From a virus (taxonomy: Duplodnaviria; Heunggongvirae; Uroviricota; Caudoviricetes), in the IMG/VR virus record IMGVR_UViG_2740892439_000007, positions 1 to 30,004 of that record: a stretch of DNA of 30,004 nt; one strand, given 5' to 3'. The notes below the pieces were generated by a model that was not told the DNA's origin, made no database searches, and saw only the letters and a program-made list of their open reading frames with translations. The translations under genes and the position numbers were made by a program. Shown here piece after piece: positions 3,958-26,777 of the stretch; position 1 is the stretch's first letter, and the number at the start of each line of letters is the position of its first letter.

Positions 3958-4200
3958 ATGAGTAACAAAATCGAAAACCCCGTAGTTCTCATTCACAAGC
4001 GTGAGAACCCCGACTCCTATGCGGTGGCGATCACCAATGGGAGTCACGATTATTACGATGGTCTGCTAATGGCCTCAGTGTCGCCTGATGAGGCAGACAA
4101 CTCTTTTGCCGTCTTCGCTATGGTTGGTTACTACATGGCTGCCGAAATTGAGAAGTTGCGGGCGCAGAGAGACGCATTAGCGGCGGAGAATGCAGCCTGA
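3958..4200 (+). CDS. Hypothetical protein (80 aa)
   Basis: ORF with ATG and gagaaaaacac leader. Confidence 0.55.
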   Translation: MSNKIENPVVLIHKRENPDSYAVAITNGSHDYYDGLLMASVSPDEADNSFAVFAMVGYYMAAEIEKLRAQRDALAAENAA

Positions 4201-7359: not shown

Positions 7360-8460
7360 TCACACTGCGCGGAATGCGATTTCGCCAGGTATTACTTCAC
7401 CTTGCCAATACATTTGGGCAGCAACGCGATCTGCGAGGTCACGATAAATAGCCGTAAATTCGCTATCTGGACGACTAATAACGGTTGGTGTTCCGTTATC
7501 CAGATCTTCACGAAGAGAGATATGAAGTGGCATTTGGCCTAACAACTGCGTGTTGTATTTCTCGGCCAGTTTCTGTGCGCCACCGGTGCCAAAAATTGGC
7601 TCGTGATGACCGCAGTTACTGCAAATATGCACACTCATGTTTTCGACGATACCCAGTACCGGCACTTCGACTTTTTCGAACATCACAATGCCTTTCTTCG
7701 CATCGATCAGCGCGATGTCTTGCGGCGTAGTTACCACAACCGCACCAGTTACAGGAATGTTCTGCGCCAGCGTCAACTGAATATCACCAGTGCCCGGCGG
7801 CATATCGAGAACGAGATAGTCCAGATCAGGCCATAGAGTTTCCTGCAACATCTGCATCAGCGCCTTGCTGGCCATCGGTCCACGCCACACCATTGCATTG
7901 TCGTCGGTGACCAGATAACCAATAGAGTTGGTTGCCAGGCCATGAGACATGATAGGTGCCATGTGAGTACCGTCAGGTGAGGTTGGACGTTGGTTTTCCG
8001 CTCCCAGCATGGTTGGAATTGATGGACCATAGATATCGGCATCCAAAATACCAACTTTCGCACCTTCAGCAGCCAACGCCAGTGCCAGGTTCACCGCCGT
8101 GGAGGATTTACCCACGCCGCCCTTGCCTGAGCTGACGGCGATAATGTTCTTAACGCCATTAATGCCTGGTTGGTTTTTGACGCGCTTAAGCGTGGCAATG
8201 TTGTACGACAGCTTCCAGTCAATAGCCTTTGCGCCAGTGATACGGAGCAGATCACCACTACATTGCTCTTTCAGGTCTTCAAAAGGCTTATTCCACACGA
8301 AAGGCATGATTAGTTCGACATGCAGTGTGTCATCCATCAACGCAACATGGTGTAACGCTTTAAGCGTAGTCAGGTTGTGTTTCAGGGTTGGGTGCTGAAA
8401 ATTAGCCAGCGTACCGGCTACCATTGCTCTCAGGGCATCCGGCGATTTGGACTCGCTCAT
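7360..8460 (-). CDS. apbC: Fe-S cluster carrier ATPase ApbC/Mrp
   Basis: 366-aa product with P-loop SSGKGGVGKS and C-terminal CxxC; near-identical to E. coli Mrp as recalled. Confidence 0.95.
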   Translation of the reverse strand: MSESKSPDALRAMVAGTLANFQHPTLKHNLTTLKALHHVALMDDTLHVELIMPFVWNKPFEDLKEQCSGDLLRITGAKAIDWKLSYNIATLKRVKNQPGINGVKNIIAVSSGKGGVGKSSTAVNLALALAAEGAKVGILDADIYGPSIPTMLGAENQRPTSPDGTHMAPIMSHGLATNSIGYLVTDDNAMVWRGPMASKALMQMLQETLWPDLDYLVLDMPPGTGDIQLTLAQNIPVTGAVVVTTPQDIALIDAKKGIVMFEKVEVPVLGIVENMSVHICSNCGHHEPIFGTGGAQKLAEKYNTQLLGQMPLHISLREDLDNGTPTVISRPDSEFTAIYRDLADRVAAQMYWQGEVIPGEIAFRAV

Positions 8461-8617
8461 CCCGTCTCCTTTATTTTAATTTGCGCAATTGTCGCCTTGT
8501 AGTGTACTCCAGCTACGACATTTAATCATTTATGAGAAATGCTGTTATCACATGGCAGACATAAGGCCATTTTGTTACTATCAAGCCCCTTTTCACTACA
8601 AAGAAGTAATGCCTACT

Positions 8618-10651
8618 ATGACCCAAGTCGCGAAGAAAATTCTGGTGACGTGCGCGCTGCCGTACGCTAACGGCTCAATCCACCTCGGCCATATGCTGGA
8701 GCACATCCAGGCTGATGTCTGGGTTCGTTACCAGCGAATGCGCGGCCACGAGGTTAATTTCATCTGTGCCGACGATGCCCACGGTACGCCGATCATGCTG
8801 AAAGCACAGCAGCTTGGTATCACACCGGAGCAGATGATTGGCGAAATGAGTCAGGAACACCAGACTGATTTCGCAGGCTTTAACATCAGCTATGACAACT
8901 ATCACTCGACGCACAGCGAAGAGAACCGTCAGTTGTCTGAGCTTATCTATACTCGCCTGAAAGAGAACGGTTTTATTAAAAACCGCACTATCTCTCAGTT
9001 GTACGACCCGGAAAAAGGCATGTTCCTGCCGGATCGTTTTGTAAAAGGCACCTGCCCGAAATGTAAAGCGCCAGATCAATACGGCGATAACTGTGAAGTC
9101 TGCGGCGCGACCTACAGCCCGACTGAACTGATTGAGCCGAAATCGGTAGTTTCTGGCGCTACGCCGGTAATGCGTGATTCTGAACACTTCTTCTTTGATC
9201 TGCCCTCTTTCAGCGAAATGTTGCAGGCATGGACCCGCAGCGGCGCGTTGCAGGAGCAGGTGGCGAACAAAATGCAGGAATGGTTTGAATCCGGCCTGCA
9301 ACAGTGGGATATCTCCCGCGATGCGCCTTACTTCGGTTTTGAAATTCCGAACGCGCCGGGCAAATATTTCTACGTCTGGCTGGACGCGCCGATTGGCTAC
9401 ATGGGTTCCTTCAAGAATCTGTGCGACAAGCGCGGCGATACCACCAGCTTCGATGAATACTGGAAGAAAGACTCCACCGCCGAGCTGTACCACTTCATCG
9501 GTAAAGATATTGTTTACTTCCACAGCCTGTTCTGGCCTGCCATGCTGGAAGGCAGCAACTTCCGCAAGCCGACCAACCTGTTTGTTCACGGCTATGTGAC
9601 GGTGAACGGCGCGAAGATGTCCAAGTCTCGCGGCACCTTTATTAAAGCCAGCACCTGGCTGAATCATTTTGACGCCGACAGCCTGCGTTACTACTACGCT
9701 GCGAAACTCTCTTCGCGCATTGATGATATCGATCTCAACCTGGAGGATTTCGTTCAGCGCGTGAATGCCGATATCGTGAACAAAGTGGTTAACCTGGCCT
9801 CCCGTAATGCAGGCTTTATCAACAAGCGTTTTGACGGCGTGCTGGCAAGCGAACTGGCTGACCCGCAACTGTACAAAACCTTTACTGATGCCGCTGAAGT
9901 GATTGGCGAAGCATGGGAAAGCCGCGAATTTGGTAAAGCTATCCGTGAAATCATGGCATTGGCTGACCTGGCTAACCGCTATGTCGATGAACAGGCTCCG
10001 TGGGTGGTGGCGAAGCAGGAAGGACGCGATGCCGATCTGCAGGCGATTTGCTCTATGGGCATTAACCTGTTCCGCGTGCTGATGACGTACCTGAAGCCGG
10101 TACTGCCGAAACTGACTGAACGTGCAGAAGCATTCCTGAATACAGAACTGACCTGGGATGGTATCCAGCAACCGCTGCTGGGCCATAAAGTGAATCCGTT
10201 CAAGGCACTGTATAACCGTATCGATATGAAGCAGGTTGAAGCACTGGTGGAAGCATCTAAAGAAGAAGTGAAAGCAGCTGCCACGCCAGTAACTGGCCCG
10301 CTGGCAGATGATCCGATTCAGGAAACCATCACCTTTGATGACTTCGCCAAAGTTGACCTGCGCGTGGCGCTGATTGAAAACGCAGAGTTTGTAGAAGGTT
10401 CTGACAAACTGCTTCGCCTGACGCTGGATCTCGGTGGTGAAAAGCGTAATGTCTTCTCAGGCATCCGTTCCGCTTATCCAGATCCACAGGCACTGATTGG
10501 TCGTCACACCATTATGGTGGCTAACCTGGCACCACGTAAAATGCGCTTCGGTATCTCTGAAGGCATGGTGATGGCTGCTGGCCCTGGCGGGAAAGATATC
10601 TTCCTGTTAAGCCCGGATGTCGGTGCTAAACCTGGCCACCAGGTTAAGTAA
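8618..10651 (+). CDS. metG: Methionine--tRNA ligase
   Basis: [25 protein letters not shown] (HIGH motif), KMSKS, C-terminal tRNA-binding domain; near-identical to E. coli MetG as recalled; the track ORF start at 8489 is an upstream alternative codon. Confidence 0.97.
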
Positions 10652-19879: not shown

Positions 19880-21438
19880 CTAATCTCGTTTCAGAACTCC
19901 AAAATCGAATGCGCCATCAATAGGCAATACACCTTCTGCAAAGCCAGGTGTGGTGTCGATGATGTGTTTTCGCTCATAAGAGTGAGACAACAGGTATTTG
20001 TTGCTAATGTCAATGAAATCAGTGATAAAACACACGTTTGCCTGATTCTTCTTGGCTCGTAAGCCACGACCGACACGCTGCCTCATTTCAACTTCTGCTT
20101 TCCCACCACCAGCCAGAATGACCGCACCAACGCTTGGCACATCAACACCGACATCCAGAATAGTCGAGCCTATTAAAACATCTATTTCGCCAGACGCTAA
20201 ACTGTTCAGCTTTGCTTGCCTTGTCGCCTGGTTTGATTCCCCATAGATGAAGTCAACTCTAAGGCCGGACTCCTTCATCATCTCCATCAGGATTTGCCCG
20301 TGGCGTTTAAGACGAACCAGAGTCATGCAATTGAGAGAATGTTGCTTATAGAGCAATGCTTCGCGCACAATGGCCTCGTTACGTCCCAAATTATACACGA
20401 TCCCCAACTGATAAGCCTTTTGGTAGGCTGTGCTCATACCTACTCTAAAATTGAGGTGTTTGTTGGCAAGTTCGGCTTGATTCTGGCCTCGTCTGGCTTG
20501 TAGGCAACTTTATGATAAAGGAAGTATGGTTTTGCCAGAATGCCTCTATCAATCAGGTACTTTTCCGTGACTTTTATTTCAATTCGCCCGGCCACTGCCA
20601 TCAGGCGCATGTTGGCTTCCGTCGAATCCTTCATGAACGGCGTGGCTGTAAGCGCCAGACGATAGTCTGCGTTCACACATAATCTGGCGATGTCATAGAA
20701 ATTAGAGCCTGAAGACTCATGCGCCTCTTCCAGAATAAGAAGAGAGACACTTGAAAGGAAGCGTTTCACCAACTCCCGACGTTTGAGGTGGTAGCTTTTC
20801 TTATCTGGTGTTGCATCGCGTGGTGGTTCTTCGAGGAAACTTGCAAGAGTTTGAACTGTAGCGACGTTGATATGTCGTGATACCTGGAACTCACCCGAGC
20901 CAATTACTCCAACCTTTTGGTCCTTTAACCACGGTTCGCCATTTTCGGCGCGGTAGTCGATGGATCTCTGGAAGTTTTCGGCCATTTGAAACATCAGAAC
21001 AGAGCGGGTTGTTAAAAATAATGTCATTCGACCGATACGTGCAGCTGCTTTGCAGGCAACGTTAGATTTCCCGCCACCAGTAGCGATCTGCGCAATCATC
21101 ATTCCCTCTCGAACCAGTGTTTCTACTGTCTGATCTTGGTACGCATAATCAGGGTTGTATGGAAATGGGTTAACCGCCGGATTTGGTTTACCCAGCGCCG
21201 GGGCTTTGTCTTTGCGGATATGAACACATTTGATGCCCGCCTTGTTCAAATTAGCCGCCACGGGCTTGGCAAAGCCAGCAGGGAACGAGTTTTTGCTCCA
21301 GTTGAACATTGTGCTTGTGCCCTTCCAGTCGCCAGCCTCGACTTCGTAGCTCAACATTTGCTGCACCAGTTGCTTTACCTTGTCATCTGCGCCAGAAATA
21401 AGCGCATTTACTGCGTTAGATACAATCCGAACAGTCAT
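19880..21438 (-). pseudogene. SF2 DExH-type helicase interrupted by a -1 frameshift (N-terminal part 20440-21438, C-terminal part 19880-20437)
   Basis: Motifs I (ATGGGKS), II (LILEEAHE) and III (LTATP) lie in the upstream ORF and motif VI (QRVGRGLR) in the downstream ORF; the frames change at a T4 run (plus-strand AAAA near 20447). Confidence 0.75.
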
Positions 21439-21520
21439 AAACCTCTTTCCTTAGTGCCTTTTGTATGTTATTTGGCTATTATAATAAGTAAGTGATTACT
21501 TAGTGGATTGTAGCAATAAA

Positions 21521-22201
21521 ATGGACGTAAAAATCACGATTTTGCAGGTTGATGTTGCCAACCTTCGCCCGAATACCTGGAACACCAATTCGGTTGGTGC
21601 GCAGAATTTCGAAAAACTGAAAGGTTCTATCGAAAAATTGGGCTTTTTTAAGCCAATTTTGGCTCGTGAGCTTGAAGATGGATTTTTTGAAATCCTCGGC
21701 GGCGAACATCGCTGGCGTGCTGCTATTGAGCAAGGAATTTCAACGGTTCCTGTGCTTTCTGTGGGCAAAATTAGCGATGTCGTGGCAAAACAGATGTCAC
21801 TGGTGGACAACGAGCGATACGGTGAAGACGACCAAATCGCATTGCAACGCTTCATTGAAGAAATTCAGTCAGAACTTGACTATCAACTGTCTGAAATCGC
21901 CCCGTATGACGACGAAATCTCGATGGTTTTAGCAAAAGAGGCGGCAATCGACCTTGAAGCACTGGAGGCGTTGTCTCGTGGCGGTGACGAGCCTGTCGAT
22001 ACCGACAAACGAGAGAAAACCGAACGTGTCGGTGCGGAACATCAGACCATGCGCTTCAAAGTAACCTTCGATGCGTCAGATCGCGTTGCAGAAACCATAA
22101 AAAACATCATCAAAGACCAGGCAATTAATACTGGCAATGAAATGGAAAACGCTGGTGAGGCTCTGGTGTGGCTGGTCGACTACTACAAGGAGCGTATGTA
22201 A
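21521..22201 (+). CDS. ParB-like nuclease (ParB/Srx N-terminal) domain protein 1
   Basis: FFEILGGEHRWRAA box; acidic C-terminal half; the track start at 21503 is GTG, first ATG is at 21521. Confidence 0.7.
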   Translation: MDVKITILQVDVANLRPNTWNTNSVGAQNFEKLKGSIEKLGFFKPILARELEDGFFEILGGEHRWRAAIEQGISTVPVLSVGKISDVVAKQMSLVDNERYGEDDQIALQRFIEEIQSELDYQLSEIAPYDDEISMVLAKEAAIDLEALEALSRGGDEPVDTDKREKTERVGAEHQTMRFKVTFDASDRVAETIKNIIKDQAINTGNEMENAGEALVWLVDYYKERM

Positions 22202-22869
22202 TGACCAAAAAGTTTGAAATCGTATATCGCGACCCGGCAGATCTTATTCCCTATGAGATGAATGCCAAAAAGCATGATGAACAGCAGATCCGAGATCTGG
22301 CCGCAGCCATTAAAAAGCGCGGATTTGACCAGCCAATTACGGTCGATAAGAACGACGTAATTATTACTGGCCACGGCCGCCGTGAGGCTGCAATTTTTGC
22401 TGGACTTGAGCGCGTACCGGTTATTGTTCGCGATGATCTCAGTGATGACGAGGTTCGTGCGAAGCGTCTTGAAGATAACCGACTTGCCAGCATTGATTAC
22501 GATGCAATTAAGCTACAAAAAGAGCTTGAGTCGCTTGTTCTGGACGATATCGAGGTTTTCGGCTTTGAAGAGCGTGAGTTGAATGTTCTCGTTGGCAGTA
22601 TGACAGAAGAAATGGACACCGACTCGCTAGTTATCGATCTTGGCGAAGAAACTAAACGACAGAAGGATGAACACACCGAGATCAGTCGTGAAGTTGCAGC
22701 GGAAGAAGTACGTGTTGTCGACGTATTGGGCTTTAAAACGCTCCCTGCTGGCTCTGCCATTGTTGTTGGTGATTTGCTTGCCCATATGGAAGAAATGACG
22801 GGAGAAAGCGGGGTAGACGCATTTGTGGCATATGCGGAGAAGATCTCTTCCGGGGAGATGGCTGCATGA
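22201..22869 (+). CDS. ParB-like nuclease domain protein 2
   Basis: PYEMNAKKH and IITGHGRREAA motifs; TAATG overlap with the upstream gene and AGGAG RBS. Confidence 0.7.
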   Translation: MTKKFEIVYRDPADLIPYEMNAKKHDEQQIRDLAAAIKKRGFDQPITVDKNDVIITGHGRREAAIFAGLERVPVIVRDDLSDDEVRAKRLEDNRLASIDYDAIKLQKELESLVLDDIEVFGFEERELNVLVGSMTEEMDTDSLVIDLGEETKRQKDEHTEISREVAAEEVRVVDVLGFKTLPAGSAIVVGDLLAHMEEMTGESGVDAFVAYAEKISSGEMAA

Positions 22870-23530
22870 GCAAATACATCATCAACGTATCGTTTCAGAC
22901 ACGCGTAAATAAAACCACGCGCACGTTGGAAATCGCTGAGTCGTTCGGGCTTGGCCTGGACGAAAAAGAGTGGACGCTTTACGACAATCTGGAGCTGGAA
23001 GTGAAGCAGGGCGATGTGGTGTACATCACCGGCCAATCCGGTTCCGGCAAATCCGTTGTGCTGCGCGAGTTGCAACGACAGATGAAGGATGAAGGGCTGT
23101 CTGTAGCTCCATCGATGATTTTACCTTCGATAATGAGGTTAACGTCATCGATCAGTTGGGCAAAACGACCAGCGATGCGCTTGGGTTGTTATCTATGGCA
23201 GGTCTGAACGATGCATATCTGTTTGTTCGCAAGCCTTCTGAAATGTCAGACGGTCAGAAATATCGTCTCAAGATTGCCAAACTGATTGAGTCAGGCGCTA
23301 AAGTGTGGGCTGCTGACGAGTTCGGTGCTGTTCTAGACCGTGTAACCGCTCAGGTTGTGGCATCTAACCTCCAGCGTGCCGCTCGAAAGGTTGGTGCGAC
23401 GGTAATGGTGGCGACGACTCACGAAGACCTGAAGAACGCGCTGCGCCCGGATATGCAGATCACCAAGCACTACAAAGAACGCGCGAAGGTGGAATATCAC
23501 AATGGTAGTCATGATGAGGTTCATTTATGA
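22866..23530 (+). pseudogene. ABC-type P-loop ATPase interrupted by a -1 frameshift
   Basis: Walker A (GQSGSGKS) lies in frame 1; signature-like MSDGQK, Walker B (VWAADEF) and H-loop (TTHED) lie in frame 2; the frames switch near GGG at 23094-23096. Confidence 0.7.
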
Positions 23531-24417
23531 CGGACATCATCATTAAACGCTACCGCCCTGAAGAGTTTCCGCGTCATCTGGACTTTCTGGAGCGAATGAC
23601 TGTCACAAAGGGAACTGTAGAGGACTGGCACGCTCTTAAGTCGCTTCACTACAAAACAGACGGCAAACCTTTCGCGCCAACTTACTATCGCTGCGAACTT
23701 GATGACCGTCTGGTGGGCGTCGTGGTTATGGCTTACCCGAAACTACTGTTGGCACCTCGCCACCGCATGTTTCCTAAGTTGAAACCAACCACTAATACCA
23801 CCGTGGCTAACCAGTACTGGGGTCGGTACGTGAATAACAACTTTGCGGTGATCAGTCGCTCAGTTGTGGATACTCAGTATCGTGGCGTAGGCGTCTCTTA
23901 TCGAATGATTAACCTGGTTAGCAGGATGCATGACCGGCCAATCATTGAGATCCAGTCCTCGATGAGTAAATACAATCCCTTCGCCATGAAAGCAGGGTTT
24001 AAGTTCATCCGCCCTGAGCGACCGAAGAGCTATGAAAGTGCACTGCGTGTATTCCAGCGCCATTTCCGTTCCGACCCGGGTGATAACGAGGCGATCGTCA
24101 AAGAGTTGTTCGCAATGAGCGAGTCTCGTCGTCGCCGTGCACTGCGTGATCTGGTGGCGGACTACCACAAGAACAGTTCCCTGGCAAAAGCTGGGCGGAA
24201 TCGTGGCACGACGATTCAGAACATTGCCGACAGTCTGGTGGACGAGGCCAGCATTGTGAAGCTGCTCAAGGACATTCACAACCTGAGCTTTACGTCTCCG
24301 TTGTATGGTGTGTATCGAAACCCTGACTTTGGTCGTCGACTGCCTGACACGCTGCCACTGCTGGCATTCGACAAACAACCTTTGGATAAACCGTTAGAAA
24401 TTGCTTTACCGGCATAA
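23527..24417 (+). CDS. GNAT-fold acyltransferase-like protein (296 aa) with a C-terminal extension of unknown function
   Basis: Motif-A-like VISRSVVDTQYRGVGVSYRMINLV; ATGA overlap with the upstream gene. Confidence 0.55.
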   Translation: MTDIIIKRYRPEEFPRHLDFLERMTVTKGTVEDWHALKSLHYKTDGKPFAPTYYRCELDDRLVGVVVMAYPKLLLAPRHRMFPKLKPTTNTTVANQYWGRYVNNNFAVISRSVVDTQYRGVGVSYRMINLVSRMHDRPIIEIQSSMSKYNPFAMKAGFKFIRPERPKSYESALRVFQRHFRSDPGDNEAIVKELFAMSESRRRRALRDLVADYHKNSSLAKAGRNRGTTIQNIADSLVDEASIVKLLKDIHNLSFTSPLYGVYRNPDFGRRLPDTLPLLAFDKQPLDKPLEIALPA

Positions 24418-24426
24418 GGATTTGCC

Positions 24427-24693
24427 ATGACGTTAACCGATAAACAAAAGGACATTATCAAAACGCTCAATCTCGGTTATGAGCGAGGTCATTTACTTGA
24501 TCTGGACGAATTGCTTGAAGTTTTGCCGTACAAGACAACCAAGCAAAGTATCCAGTTCTCAATTCGCGCTCTGATAAAAAAGGGGCTGGTGGAGAAAGGG
24601 CATACGCGCCAACGCAGTGACAATCGCTATCACCGCCGAACTCTTGGGTTAACCACTTTAGGTCGAGCCAAAGCGAAGTTACTGGTGATGTAA
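24427..24693 (+). CDS. Small basic protein, putative winged-helix DNA-binding regulator (88 aa)
   Basis: aagga RBS; basic C-terminus; last gene before the late-operon control region. Confidence 0.55.
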   Translation: MTLTDKQKDIIKTLNLGYERGHLLDLDELLEVLPYKTTKQSIQFSIRALIKKGLVEKGHTRQRSDNRYHRRTLGLTTLGRAKAKLLVM

Positions 24694-24720
24694 TCGGTCT
24701 GGGAGCTTATTTAAAGACCT

Positions 24721-24769
24721 GCTTCTGTATATATAAATAATAAGTAACTTATTAAATATATACGGAAGC
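24721..24769. promoter_or_regulatory. 49-bp AT-rich imperfect palindrome (gcttctgtatatat ... atatatacggaagc)
   Basis: 14-bp outer arms with one mismatch and an inner dyad (aataagt a acttatt). Confidence 0.5.
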
Positions 24770-24811
24770 AGGCTTAATAAGACATGCCCAGACCTAATTA
24801 AACACCCCAGA

Positions 24812-24849
24812 AAACAAGTTGGTTAGCAGATGCAGTAAACAAGTTGTTT
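24812..24849 (+). promoter_or_regulatory. Two operators (24812-24824, one mismatch; 24837-24849, perfect) with centres 25 bp apart, upstream of the late operon
   Basis: Same AAACAA-G-TTGTTT family, but different spacing from the early cassettes and no extended -10 between them. Confidence 0.6.
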
Positions 24850-24850
24850 T

Positions 24851-24880
24851 AGAGCGCATGGACGCGCTCTGTGTGTTTTA
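24851..24880 (+). terminator. Hairpin (agagcgc atggac gcgctct) plus T-rich tract immediately upstream of TerS
   Basis: 7-bp stem followed by gtgtgtttta; the TerS RBS overlaps the T-rich tail. Confidence 0.5.
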
Positions 24881-24889
24881 GAGGGATCT

Positions 24890-25522
24890 ATGACGGTCGA
24901 AAAAGACGAGGTAAAAACTCGCCTGACACCAGCGGAGTGGGCCGAAGCTGAAGCCAAATGGACGTCAGGCGAATATACACTCTCAAAGCTGGAGGAAGAG
25001 TACGGCATTCGTCGTGAAACACTCTCCAGACATTTCAAAAAGCGAGGATTAGAGAAAGGCGCGGACTCTGTTGGGAAGATGGTTCGTGAGTCTCTTAAAT
25101 CTGACGCAGAGCTTCGCGCTAAAGCCCGTGCGGAAAAGATAGAAGAACGTCGTACACGTTATGACGGCTGGGCGTATGCGTTGGGGCAGATGGTGATGGT
25201 CGAAGTCACTACGGCCAAACGTGAGAGTAAGCCTTTAGGGGCGATTGAGGATTCTCTCAAGAGCTTACAGAGAGCCAGTAATACCCTTGCAAAATGCTTT
25301 GAAGTTTCGTCCAAAGCATTGGGCATGGATCATGCGGAAAATGACGAGGAAGAAATTCCGAACCTGGTATTTGGTGAGCTTACACCTTCCCAGGTGGCGA
25401 AATTACGTCAGGAAGACGACGAGCCTGAAATCATCGATGACGAATTGCTTGAGACGTTGGAAGAAGAAGCTCTAAGCGAATTTGATGCGACAGATGATGG
25501 AAGTGAAGGGGAGGACGAATAA
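24890..25522 (+). CDS. Terminase small subunit candidate (210 aa)
   Basis: Position directly upstream of TerL; acidic C-terminal tail; stop overlaps the TerL start. Confidence 0.6.
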   Translation: MTVEKDEVKTRLTPAEWAEAEAKWTSGEYTLSKLEEEYGIRRETLSRHFKKRGLEKGADSVGKMVRESLKSDAELRAKARAEKIEERRTRYDGWAYALGQMVMVEVTTAKRESKPLGAIEDSLKSLQRASNTLAKCFEVSSKALGMDHAENDEEEIPNLVFGELTPSQVAKLRQEDDEPEIIDDELLETLEEEALSEFDATDDGSEGEDE

Positions 25523-26777
25523 TGGCAATCCCGTCCTCGCTCAGTCTTGTGCAACTGCATTCTGGACAGATGAAAGTCTTCCAGTCTCCGCATCGATTTA
25601 AAGTTGTTTGTGCTGGTCGACGCTGGGGAAAATCCCGGTTGTCGATCTCCACTATTATTCGTGCGGCGGCAAAGGAAAAAAAGCAAAGGGTCTGGTATGT
25701 CGCTCCTACTTACCAGATGGCTCGCCAGATTTTGTGGGACGATCTACAGGAAGTTCTGCCTCGTAAGTGGGTTAGGAAAAAGAACGACACCACGATGACA
25801 ATCGTGTTGAAGAACGGTTCGGAGATCGCCCTCAAAGGTGCTGATAAGCCTGACACTCTGCGCGGCGTAGCGTTGCATTTTGTAGTGCTTGATGAATTTC
25901 AGGATATGAAGCTGACACCTGGTACAAGGTGTTACGACCTACTCTTTCATCGACACGCGGCGGTGCACTGATCATTGGTACGCCAAAAGGCTTCTCGGAA
26001 TTTCACAAACTGTGGACTATAGGCCAGAACGTAGAGTTGCAAAGAAAGGGACAGTGGAAGAGCTGGCAGTTTGTAACTGCCGATTCTCCGTTTGTACCTA
26101 CGGCGGAAATTGAAGCTGCTAAGAACGATATGGACCCCAAATCGTTCGCTCAGGAGTACCTGGCCAGCTTTGAGAACATGTCCGGGCGCGTTTACTACCC
26201 GTTCGATCGTAACGTGCATGTAAAACCGCTTCAGTTCAACCCTCGGTTGCCTATATGGGTAGGGCAGGACTTCAACATTGACCCGATGTCTTCAGTAATT
26301 TTGCAACCTCAGCCAAATGGTGAGCTATGGGCAATTGATGAATTGGTGCTCTTTTCCTCTAACACGGCAGAAGTTTGTGATGAGCTTGAGAGACGCTTCT
26401 GGCGCTGGAAATCACAGGTAACGGTATTTCCAGATCCGGCAGGTGCTTATCGCCAACATGCTCGTGGGGAGTCTGACGTAGACATATTCAAAGAGAAGGG
26501 ATTCTTACGTGTCGATTATTCGAAAAAGCACCCGCCAATTGCGGATCGTGTTAATGCTGTTAACCGAATGCTGATGTCCGCATCTGGAGATATCCGGCTG
26601 TATATCGATCCGAAGTGCAAGCATTTGATTGATTCACTGGAAAAAGTTATCTACAAGCCTGGAACACGAGATATGGATAAGACAGGTGGCATTGAGCATA
26701 GTGCAGACGCATTGGGCTATCCAGTACATCGTAGGTATCCAGTCAAAAACCGTGTTATTCTTGGTGGTTCTCGATAG
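25522..26777 (+). pseudogene. Terminase large subunit interrupted by a -1 frameshift
   Basis: Walker A (VVCAGRRWGKS) and Walker B (HFVVLDEF) in the first ORF; the second ORF's frame is open from 25896 and encodes the nuclease half. Confidence 0.8.

Follow-up and report, generated by a model that had tools for sequence, protein, structure and literature searches.

The five genes at positions 21521–24693 of the viral DNA analyzed here (a stretch of 30,004 nucleotides, hereinafter the window), which belongs to an SSU5-like phage-plasmid of E. coli, constitute a conserved, uncharacterized operon of SSU5-type phage-plasmids. Judging from sequence comparison, two of these genes, encoding an ABC-type ATPase and a GNAT-fold acyltransferase-like protein, are the split form of one evolutionary unit that in most relatives is a single polypeptide with the COG2401 architecture. 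We tentatively propose, at somewhat less than even odds, that the operon encodes an ATP-driven acyltransferase that is assisted by ParB and modifies phage DNA, or a DNA-bound target, between replication and packaging. The narrower version of this proposal, in which an ATP-dependent, ParB-activated GNAT acylates bases of the viral DNA as replication gives way to packaging and would represent a previously unrecognized kind of enzyme, is more doubtful.

The operon consists of five tightly coupled plus-strand genes located upstream of the genes for a TerS-like protein and the terminase large subunit (TerL), with the following features in this part of the window:

19880–21438, minus strand: divergent DEAD/DEAH (UvsW-like) helicase, split by a 1-nt deletion at about 20476
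21521–22201, plus strand: ParB1, 226 aa, with a ParB/Srx N-domain
22201–22869, plus strand: ParB2, 222 aa, a paralogue of ParB1
22866–23530, plus strand: ABC-type ATPase, nucleotide-binding domain only, 221 aa once repaired
23527–24417, plus strand: GNAT-fold acyltransferase-like protein, 296 aa
24427–24693, plus strand: small, basic, MarR-like winged-HTH (wHTH) protein, 88 aa
24718–24772, no strand assigned: AT-rich palindrome with GC clamps, CCTGCTTCyGTATATAT...ATATATACrGAAGCAGG
24850–24871, plus strand: terminator-like hairpin, then a T-rich tail, in the stretch separating the TerS-like gene from the module
24890–25522, plus strand: TerS-like DNA-binding protein (phrog_867), the right neighbor of the module
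25522–26777, plus strand: TerL, split by a 1-nt deletion at about 25911

The initial annotation regarded the five genes as a single coupled unit, and the junctions bear this out: the ParB1 stop and the ParB2 start overlap as TAATG, the ATPase gene has an ATGA overlap at both ends, and 9 nt separate the GNAT gene from that of the 88-aa protein. The operon was also placed directly upstream of the terminase; it is indeed upstream but not contiguous, being separated from the TerS-like gene by a 196-nt spacer that contains the palindrome and the hairpin. The window contains no tRNA or Rfam features, and a sigma-70 promoter scan of the spacer between the helicase and ParB1 genes yielded no convincing candidate.

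The gene set and order recur in distant relatives at 41–45% protein identity, all five genes are present in at least 82 of the 86 loci compared, and the region matches 793 plasmid records in PLSDB. In all SSU5-like relatives the module adjoins the TerS-like and TerL genes, and it is found as well on a 3.27-Mb contig that is probably an integrated prophage; in a scan of viral contigs, the best 80 matches listed included only close relatives (80% identity or more). The helicase is the conserved left neighbor, with the same divergent gene in L003, L004, L086, and L087, which also encode orthologues of the wHTH protein. Failure of these genes to co-occur elsewhere had been named as the outcome that would undo the module; since they co-occur widely, the module withstands this test. 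Synteny within the SSU5-like phages may reflect simple vertical inheritance. The earlier view that the module is not assignable to a known system likewise stands: the literature searched contained no paper characterizing the module or the fused COG2401 ATPase, and nothing about the module was found in searches on the SSU5 ParB or the thaumarchaeal-provirus acetyltransferase.

A profile of the GNAT family matched 919 representatives; the distant ones are for the most part proteins of 440–560 aa with an N-terminal ABC nucleotide-binding domain (NBD). These fused proteins are recovered by the family profile with E = 1e-27 to 1e-15 and show the ABC NBD followed by the GNAT domain, the order that characterizes COG2401. 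The window ATPase and the N-terminal half of the fused proteins are orthologous and have the motifs FGLGxDE, GxSGSGKS, SDGQKYR, and DEF in common, and the motifs of both halves are common to split and fused proteins. Thus, the set of two ParBs, an ABC-type ATPase, and a GNAT was correctly itemized in the initial annotation, but counting the ATPase and the GNAT as separate components understated their relationship. The COG2401-type ABC ATPase-acetyltransferase (MK0520-like, so labeled in JGI and GenBank annotation) possesses the same domain pair and motif set, the window ATPase corresponding to its N-terminal half and the GNAT protein to its C-terminal half; in the window, however, the halves are separate, translationally coupled genes, with two ParB paralogues before them and the wHTH protein after them.

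The fused form is encoded in about 550 genomes, mostly in tailed proviruses of TACK archaea, where it is usually beside TerL. In a set of 80 mostly archaeal loci that have the fused gene within a tailed provirus, 48 contain TerL, in 29 cases directly upstream, and this TerL is homologous to the SSU5-like TerL and belongs to the same clade. The fused gene is followed directly by a ParB_N gene in L143, L161, L154, and L147, the two reading frames overlapping in the first two of these loci; in L143, L154, and L161 the order ABC-GNAT, ParB, small ORF, TerL mirrors that of the window. Most of the relatives have no ParB neighbor, and hence ParB is not obligatory. The ABC-GNAT unit is also linked to DNA synthesis: a phage-like contig that carries PrimPol, RecA, and an exonuclease encodes a 1260-aa polypeptide combining family-B DNA polymerase (PolB), ABC, and GNAT domains, another contig has the order PolB, 224-aa ORF, ABC-GNAT, RuvC-like gene, and yet another the order DnaB, DHH exonuclease, ABC-GNAT. 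Within the stretches covered around the replication-module and PolB-fused genes, no terminase homologue was detected.

With respect to the individual components, the GNAT-fold protein (net charge +16) contains the beta4-alpha3 motif A of the superfamily (Q/R-x-x-G-x-G/A), conserved as Y-R-G-x-G, which upholds the fold assignment. What had been described as a 120-aa C-terminal extension is mainly a basic helical insertion of ~90 aa (about residues 165–255) between beta6 and beta7, with beta7 (259–264) following it. Foldseek searches with the GNAT model gave phage Mu Mom as the top match in both PDB and the viral BFVD, within a nearly flat range of fold similarity in which Mom (E 1e-4) is close to many amine acetyltransferases. 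Homology to Mom at the sequence level, which for a Mom-family member would extend to the catalytic residues R111 and S124, was not detected, the likeness being confined to the fold: hhalign of the GNAT family against Mom gave a probability of 0.2%, and the family profile had no meaningful match among PDB sequences. Mom has a GNAT fold and modifies adenine in DNA by glycylation or carbamoylmethylation, for which it uses Gly-tRNA (PMC13219725). Like Mom, the window protein comes from a phage and has a GNAT fold whose later part contains a helical insertion; in contrast to Mom, which uses charged tRNA (PMC13219725) and acts alone, without an ATPase or ParB partner, the window protein retains the acyl-CoA-type motif A.

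The ATPase displays the Walker A (GQSGSGKS), signature ((M)SDGQ), Walker B (VWAADE), and H-loop (TTHE) motifs of the ABC superfamily, to which its many NBD matches and an ABC_tran score of 28.9 bits on the N-terminal half also assign it, although the NBD is interrupted in the window. The domain resembles transporter-type NBDs more than the SMC/Rad50 class; no gene for a membrane protein is present in the operon or its flanks, and the fused relatives indicate that the partner of the ATPase is the GNAT protein rather than a permease.

Both ParB-like proteins exceed the Pfam ParB_N (PF02195) gathering cut-off of 26.3 bits (49.9 bits for ParB1 and 35.2 bits for ParB2), which confirms them as members of the ParB/Srx superfamily. 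In ParB1, an acidic linker joins the ParB/Srx N-domain to a small C-terminal domain that, by alignment, is common to both paralogues; the two proteins are strongly acidic (net charge -18 and -22, respectively), and no HTH family was detected in either with Pfam. At the positions that would correspond to the ParB CTPase switch, defined by the GERRxRA arginine patch and the ENxxR box through which CTP is bound and hydrolyzed, one arginine is nearly invariant and the asparagine invariant among 10 aligned orthologues, the corresponding motifs being GGEHRWRAA and DNER in ParB1, and GHGRREAA and EDNR in ParB2. ParB1 (phrog_723) matches the N-domains of Spo0J, ParB, Noc, and PadC in PDB. The closest relative of ParB2 (phrog_930) is the homologous ParB module of phage ParB-methyltransferase fusions, as seen in its matches to phrog_498, 'DNA methyltransferase' (E = 1e-31, residues 3–155), and to PADLOC MTase_II (2.8e-17). 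Homologue searches with ParB1 or the ATPase returned only near-identical SSU5-like sequences, and the ParB structure predicted from a shallow alignment had a pLDDT of 61.9. ParB-like proteins devoid of a DNA-binding domain activate phage thymine dioxygenases (PMC13229309), and fusions of ParB with methyltransferases and acetyltransferases are known (PMC12704722). These systems share with the window the combination of a ParB/Srx N-domain, without a clear DNA-binding domain, and a DNA-modifying enzyme, a role that the window partner is here predicted to have; they differ in that this partner is an ABC-ATPase/GNAT pair and that there are two ParB paralogues, not one.

The 88-aa protein (phrog_900; net charge +9) is always encoded directly after the GNAT gene in SSU5-like relatives. 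Its designation as a small wHTH protein rests on profile matches to MarR structures that are weak (E = 0.012–0.3) and cover the helix-wing region, together with weak Sta1/Lrs14 matches; it has no Pfam match, and we keep the name with this qualification. The palindrome beyond it may serve as an operator or regulatory site; three copies of it occur on the related plasmid p09EL50.

We hypothesize that the five gene products form one machine, with the ABC-type ATPase and the GNAT, as an acyl-CoA-dependent transferase, making up the catalytic core. The ABC domains would dimerize and, driven by ATP, engage double-stranded phage DNA, allowing the basic GNAT subunit to place an acyl group on a DNA base or a DNA-bound target; were this to take place on freshly replicated DNA, during packaging or just ahead of it, the progeny genomes would be protected. 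The acidic, HTH-less ParB/Srx paralogues, probably heterodimerizing via their common C-terminal domain, could be nucleotide-switched activators or loaders, by analogy with the ParB parts of phage ParB-methyltransferases and with the ParB proteins that activate phage thymine dioxygenases, and the wHTH protein could be a regulator or could recognize a site, possibly the repeated palindrome nearby. The genomic patterns that point toward DNA modification are the Rosetta-stone fusion, the links to DNA synthesis and to packaging, the independent association with ParB, the ParB precedents, and membership in the core gene set. Conversely, the fold similarity of the GNAT is nearly flat, no sequence relation to Mom is seen, and nucleic acids are far less common acceptors for GNATs than proteins and small molecules. 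Also counting against DNA modification are the strong acidity of the ParBs, which have no detectable DNA-binding domain, the lack of a ParB neighbor in most relatives, the transporter-type NBD, and possible vertical inheritance; the literature searched offers no direct evidence of DNA modification in SSU5-like phages.

If the core does acylate DNA, it would constitute a second GNAT route to DNA hypermodification beside Mom, mechanistically different in being energized by an ABC ATPase and aided by ParB-fold partners, and would widen the newly recognized non-segregation roles of the ParB fold. Such a route would be common to enterobacterial phage-plasmids, including the pHCM2/SSU5-type plasmids of clinical Klebsiella, E. 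coli, Salmonella, and Yersinia, to other phages, and to tailed proviruses of TACK archaea. The module belongs to the core of ~110-kb phage-plasmids that, as the PLSDB records show, are very common in clinical Enterobacteriaceae, and its fused relatives serve as a marker of a large group of archaeal proviruses; given this wide distribution, a single experiment could permit the annotation of thousands of 'hypothetical' genes.

Of the three roles suggested initially, DNA modification and a packaging-linked function are both still live. The latter, in the form of a packaging accessory without DNA chemistry that assists the terminase in recognizing or processing concatemer ends or the packaging site, is unlikely; in this scheme the ParB-like proteins would act as a nuclease or loader, the ABC ATPase would clamp DNA, the wHTH protein would bind the pac site, and the GNAT would either acetylate a packaging protein or have a structural role. 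The constant proximity to the TerS-like and TerL genes in SSU5-like relatives, the adjacency of the fused gene to a homologous TerL in archaeal proviruses, and the mirrored gene order in three of these are all in its favor, as is the observation that the GenBank records of SSU5 and Cyrano end inside the palindrome beside the module. This reading does not explain, however, the presence of the fused protein in replication modules or in fusion with PolB, where the stretch covered showed no terminase homologue; moreover, a dedicated TerS-like gene is already present (its orthologue in L086 shows a weak CENP-B_N match), the terminator-like hairpin intervenes between the module and the terminase genes, and the conserved acyl-CoA motif argues for genuine catalysis.

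The third suggested role, defense, found no support: the GNAT protein has no match in PADLOC, the matches of the ATPase are mostly short and centered on the P-loop, and the ParBs match only the N-terminal ParB regions of methyltransferases. An acetyltransferase of proteins or small molecules serving host takeover or anti-defense, with the ABC ATPase and the ParBs as regulators, is improbable, somewhat more so than a packaging accessory; its targets might be nucleoid or chromatin proteins, a defense effector or signaling molecule, or polyamines. The module belongs to the core syntenic gene set rather than to the variable morons, and both the PolB fusion and the ParB and TerL coupling suggest a link with DNA; the blank PADLOC result for the GNAT also weighs against this role.

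The window copy was earlier suspected of being inactive, given its frameshifted ATPase. In the sequence as it stands the frameshift is genuine: one nucleotide is deleted at about 23106/7, so that the gene reads as two ORFs (22866–23207 and 23156–23530). Nevertheless, only the window copy, one of 86 loci, has this deletion; in the other 85 the ATPase gene is intact in 82 and partial in three. The window contains five 1-nt deletions in total (at 4197, 20476, 23107, 25911, and 27994), which besides the ATPase disrupt the helicase, TerL, the portal, and one further stretch; all are in 2–3-nt G/C runs, against a background identity of about 99%, and none is shared with any other locus compared. The uniqueness of the ATPase deletion, along with the four further deletions of the same kind, suggests that the frameshift is probably a sequencing or assembly error rather than decay. 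A decaying, non-functional remnant, to which frameshifts in the ATPase, helicase, TerL, and portal genes might seem to testify, is accordingly a poor prospect, given that a prophage is unlikely to lose four essential genes by one type of lesion only. Programmed frameshifting was rejected because the shift is not found in any relative.

An RNA or tRNA acetyltransferase that tunes translation for a phage-plasmid bearing tRNA genes and metG is very unlikely. It would follow the logic of TmcA, in which an ATPase is joined to a GNAT that forms ac4C (PMC13219725); TmcA ranks 5th and 7th in the Foldseek search against PDB, and relatives of the window plasmid encode tRNAs and metG. The likeness to TmcA/NAT10, a P-loop ATPase coupled to a GNAT, is one of analogy: the ATPase is helicase-like there and of the ABC class here, TmcA is one chain whose tRNA-binding tail has no counterpart in the module, and TmcA/NAT10 acetylates cytidine N4 in RNA, whereas the ParB, TerL, and PolB associations of the module are centered on DNA. 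The window, moreover, is without tRNA genes.

The ParBs share with canonical ParABS proteins the ParB/Srx N-terminal fold and partly conserved GxxRxxA and (D/E)N motifs, but their TIGR00180 scores (43.2 and 43.1 bits) are below the 58.45 cut-off, and they have no adjacent ParA, no HTH, and no parS; the only ParA-type gene on p09EL50, a ParA/MipZ-type ATPase with a small partner gene, is ~78 kb away. Thus, although the element is maintained as a plasmid and databases label the product a 'ParB/RepB/Spo0J family partition protein', a centromere-binding plasmid-partition system is highly implausible, all the more so as the module also occurs on the 3.27-Mb contig and near archaeal proviral TerL genes. 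The current partition and ABC-transporter labels of the module genes in databases are probably wrong.

The ORF list and the sequence agree on the five genes, and on the TAATG, ATGA, ATGA and 9-nt junctions between them, that the initial annotation had described, and the five products belong to five separate PHROGs phage families (phrog_723, 930, 293, 886 and 900). The features of the module and of the spacer that follows it are:

21521-22201, + strand: ParB1 (ORF list and sequence; passes Pfam ParB_N; own PHROGs family)
22201-22869, + strand: ParB2 (TAATG junction with ParB1; passes Pfam ParB_N; own PHROGs family)
22866-23530, + strand: ABC ATPase (ATGA overlap at both ends; both halves match Pfam ABC_tran)
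23527-24417, + strand: GNAT-like gene (ORF list and sequence)
24427-24693, + strand: 88-aa wHTH-like gene, after a 9-nt gap
24718-24772, within the spacer: palindrome of ~55 bp, AT-rich with GC-rich clamps (CCTGCTTCyGTATATAT...ATATATACrGAAGCAGG)
24850-24871, within the spacer: terminator-like hairpin, a GC-rich stem then a T-rich tail, 19 nt 5' of the TerS-like start codon

The 5' neighbor of the module is a divergently transcribed DEAD/DEAH helicase gene; on the 3' side, a 196-nt spacer is followed by a TerS-like gene (phrog_867), TerL and the portal gene. The terminase genes do lie downstream, as had been stated, but not directly so, given the intervening palindrome and hairpin. With these two elements in the spacer, the module is probably transcribed on its own and not as the opening part of the terminase operon. 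The hairpin could end or dampen transcription that runs from the module into the packaging genes; possible roles of the palindrome are operator, late-promoter element and transcription stop. Three copies of the palindrome, all intergenic, are present on the related plasmid p09EL50 (including 44656-44716 and 91397-91451, in stretches L094 and L095), and the GenBank records of SSU5 and Cyrano end within the module-adjacent copy.

Over 21400-24950 the sequence shares 99% identity with E. coli plasmids of ~110 kb, p09EL50 (NC_018651) being one, and with the Escherichia phages CMS-2020a, PhiR41_1 and Cyrano; identity falls to 80-85% against Salmonella phage SSU5 and Klebsiella phage-plasmids. Matches were found in 260 of 5426 E. 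coli genomes, every one plasmid-borne, and a longer query retrieved 793 PLSDB plasmids (Klebsiella, Escherichia, Enterobacter, Yersinia, Salmonella and others). These matches identify the window as a piece of an SSU5/pHCM2-type phage-plasmid. Its cellular-type cargo includes apbC (Fe-S cluster carrier; 7360-8460, - strand) and metG (methionyl-tRNA synthetase; 8489-10651, + strand). On p09EL50, 48176-51204 (L094 10177-13205) holds a 367-aa thymidylate-synthase homolog, matched by the Pfam model in two stretches, which adjoins DHFR and a MazG/PRA-PH-like pyrophosphohydrolase, with the ribonucleotide reductase genes nrdAB next.

A check for co-occurrence elsewhere, as the initial annotation had advised, found the order helicase (opposite strand), ParB, ParB, ABC, GNAT, small protein, TerS-like, TerL and portal retained in four distant SSU5-like relatives with GNAT proteins 41-45% identical, small genes being occasionally interposed between module genes. 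One of these relatives lies within a 3.27-Mb contig and another within an Ectothiorhodospira genome; L087, also among them, encodes anti-defense genes (Acb2/Tad1 hairpin, Sequestin) at 1-410, a few kb from the module.

Within this conserved operon, the ABC ATPase and the GNAT-like protein constitute a single evolutionary unit. A GNAT-family profile searched against 1.84 billion representative proteins yielded 919 matches, most of which, beyond close stand-alone proteins, are 440-560 aa long; residues ~200-480 form the GNAT-like region, and an ABC NBD precedes it (Pfam). An alignment of 30 such fusions shows the motifs of the two window proteins in both the ABC half (N-terminal FGLGxDE, Walker A, SDGQKYR, DEF) and the GNAT half (HYK, RVVxxPxYRGxGxG, YNPFxxKAG, YxxxxNP), and JGI and GenBank label split and fused forms alike with the COG2401 name, [quoted passage not shown]. 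Since domain order, motifs and label are shared, the two window genes are a split member of the fused family, for which our literature search found no characterizing publication. Among the fused proteins P0285 and P0274, one has a Hint/LAGLIDADG intein in the ABC domain, and a thaumarchaeal one ends in a TFIIB repeat.

The unit repeatedly adjoins TerL, DNA-replication and ParB-like genes in unrelated bacterial and archaeal viruses. A scan of one genome per species placed the fused family at 548 loci. The best 80 of these, nearly all in MAGs of Nitrososphaeria, Caldarchaeales and Bathyarchaeia, are tailed proviruses, judging from their neighboring ORFs, which were clustered and Pfam-annotated. 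HK97-type capsid and gp10-like genes occur among these neighbors. A Terminase_6-type TerL with detectable homology to that of SSU5-like phages (phmmer 1e-14 to 1e-7) is present in 48 of the 80; in 29 it is the gene directly upstream of the fused one, on the same strand. With an HMM built from the window-type ParBs, ParB_N genes were detected directly 3' of the fused gene in four loci (L143, L161, L154, L147), with overlapping reading frames in L143 and L161; in L143, L154 and L161 a small ORF and then TerL follow, mirroring the order in the window. In bacterial-virus contigs, the fused gene resides within replication modules. PolB, ABC and GNAT form a single 1260-aa protein (P0323; L088/L089 7001-10783; also P0294 and P0421), in P0323 on a phage-like contig with PrimPol, RecA, a 5'-3' exonuclease and an SbcC-like gene; other contigs have the orders PolB, 224-aa ORF, ABC-GNAT, RuvC-like gene and, in an SPbeta-like context, DnaB, DHH exonuclease, ABC-GNAT.

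The GNAT-like protein, which has no match in Pfam, NCBIfam or PADLOC, has 341 homologs, about 290-310 aa in length, in which many residues are invariant, among them the Y-R-G-x-G of motif A; its acyl-CoA-type motif is intact and its net charge is +16. What had been taken for a 120-aa C-terminal extension is, in the structure model, mainly a basic, helical stretch inserted between strands beta6 and beta7. Residues 175-209 of Mom, the DNA-adenine-modifying enzyme of phage Mu (231 residues), form an essential HTH-like insertion (PMC13219725), a late insertion at the same position, as read from the topology description in that paper.

We infer that the ABC-GNAT unit acts on viral DNA between replication and packaging, and our preferred reading is that it would acylate a DNA base, with the ParB pair activating or loading it and the wHTH protein in a regulatory role. 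The main rival is a packaging accessory that performs no DNA chemistry; acetylation of a protein or small molecule, or of RNA, is less likely.

Also less likely is a dead remnant, as implied by the suggestion that the frameshifted ATPase inactivates this copy. Alignment to two close relatives locates the break to a one-base deletion at about 23106/7, and the same type of lesion affects the helicase (about 20476), TerL (about 25911), the portal (about 27994) and a fifth site at about 4197, each removing one base from a 2-3-nt C or G run. Of 86 loci compared, 82 have the full-length ATPase in a single frame and three have a partial one; only the window has it split, and the same is true of TerL. 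RefSeq relatives encode intact ATPase, helicase and TerL of 221, 519 and 418 aa. The frameshift is thus most likely an assembly error, and certainly not a feature of the module; the five deletions suggest that the source record was affected by systematic error in sequencing or assembly. A conserved programmed frameshift was rejected, the split being confined to the window.

The role proposed for the ParB pair has precedents in recent work: phage ParB-like proteins lacking a DNA-binding domain activate thymine dioxygenases (PMC13229309), and fusions of ParB folds are frequent, with methyltransferases in phages and with an acetyltransferase in bacteria (PMC12704722). The N-domains of ParB1 (motifs GGEHRWRAA, DNER) and ParB2 (GHGRREAA, EDNR) match structures of CTP-binding ParB, Spo0J, Noc and PadC; both proteins are very acidic, and they have in common an acidic linker and a small C-terminal domain. 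Outside ParB-annotated families, ParB2 best matches the ParB modules carried by phage DNA methyltransferases (phrog_498, 1e-31; PADLOC MTase_II, 3e-17). The module is real and widespread but has no assigned function; it fits best among the ParB-assisted viral systems for nucleic-acid modification, as a variant whose chemistry is predicted. Plasmid partition is unlikely, because no HTH domain was detected in either ParB, TIGR00180 scores below its cut-off, no ParA gene is adjacent, and p09EL50 encodes, away from the module, a ParA/MipZ-type ATPase followed by a small partner gene, a pair that is probably the real partition cassette and is unrelated to the module. This cassette and a nearby DUF1778 and GNAT pair, a TacA/TacT-type toxin-antitoxin likewise unrelated to the module, occupy p09EL50 93206-94233 and 94552-95350 (L095).
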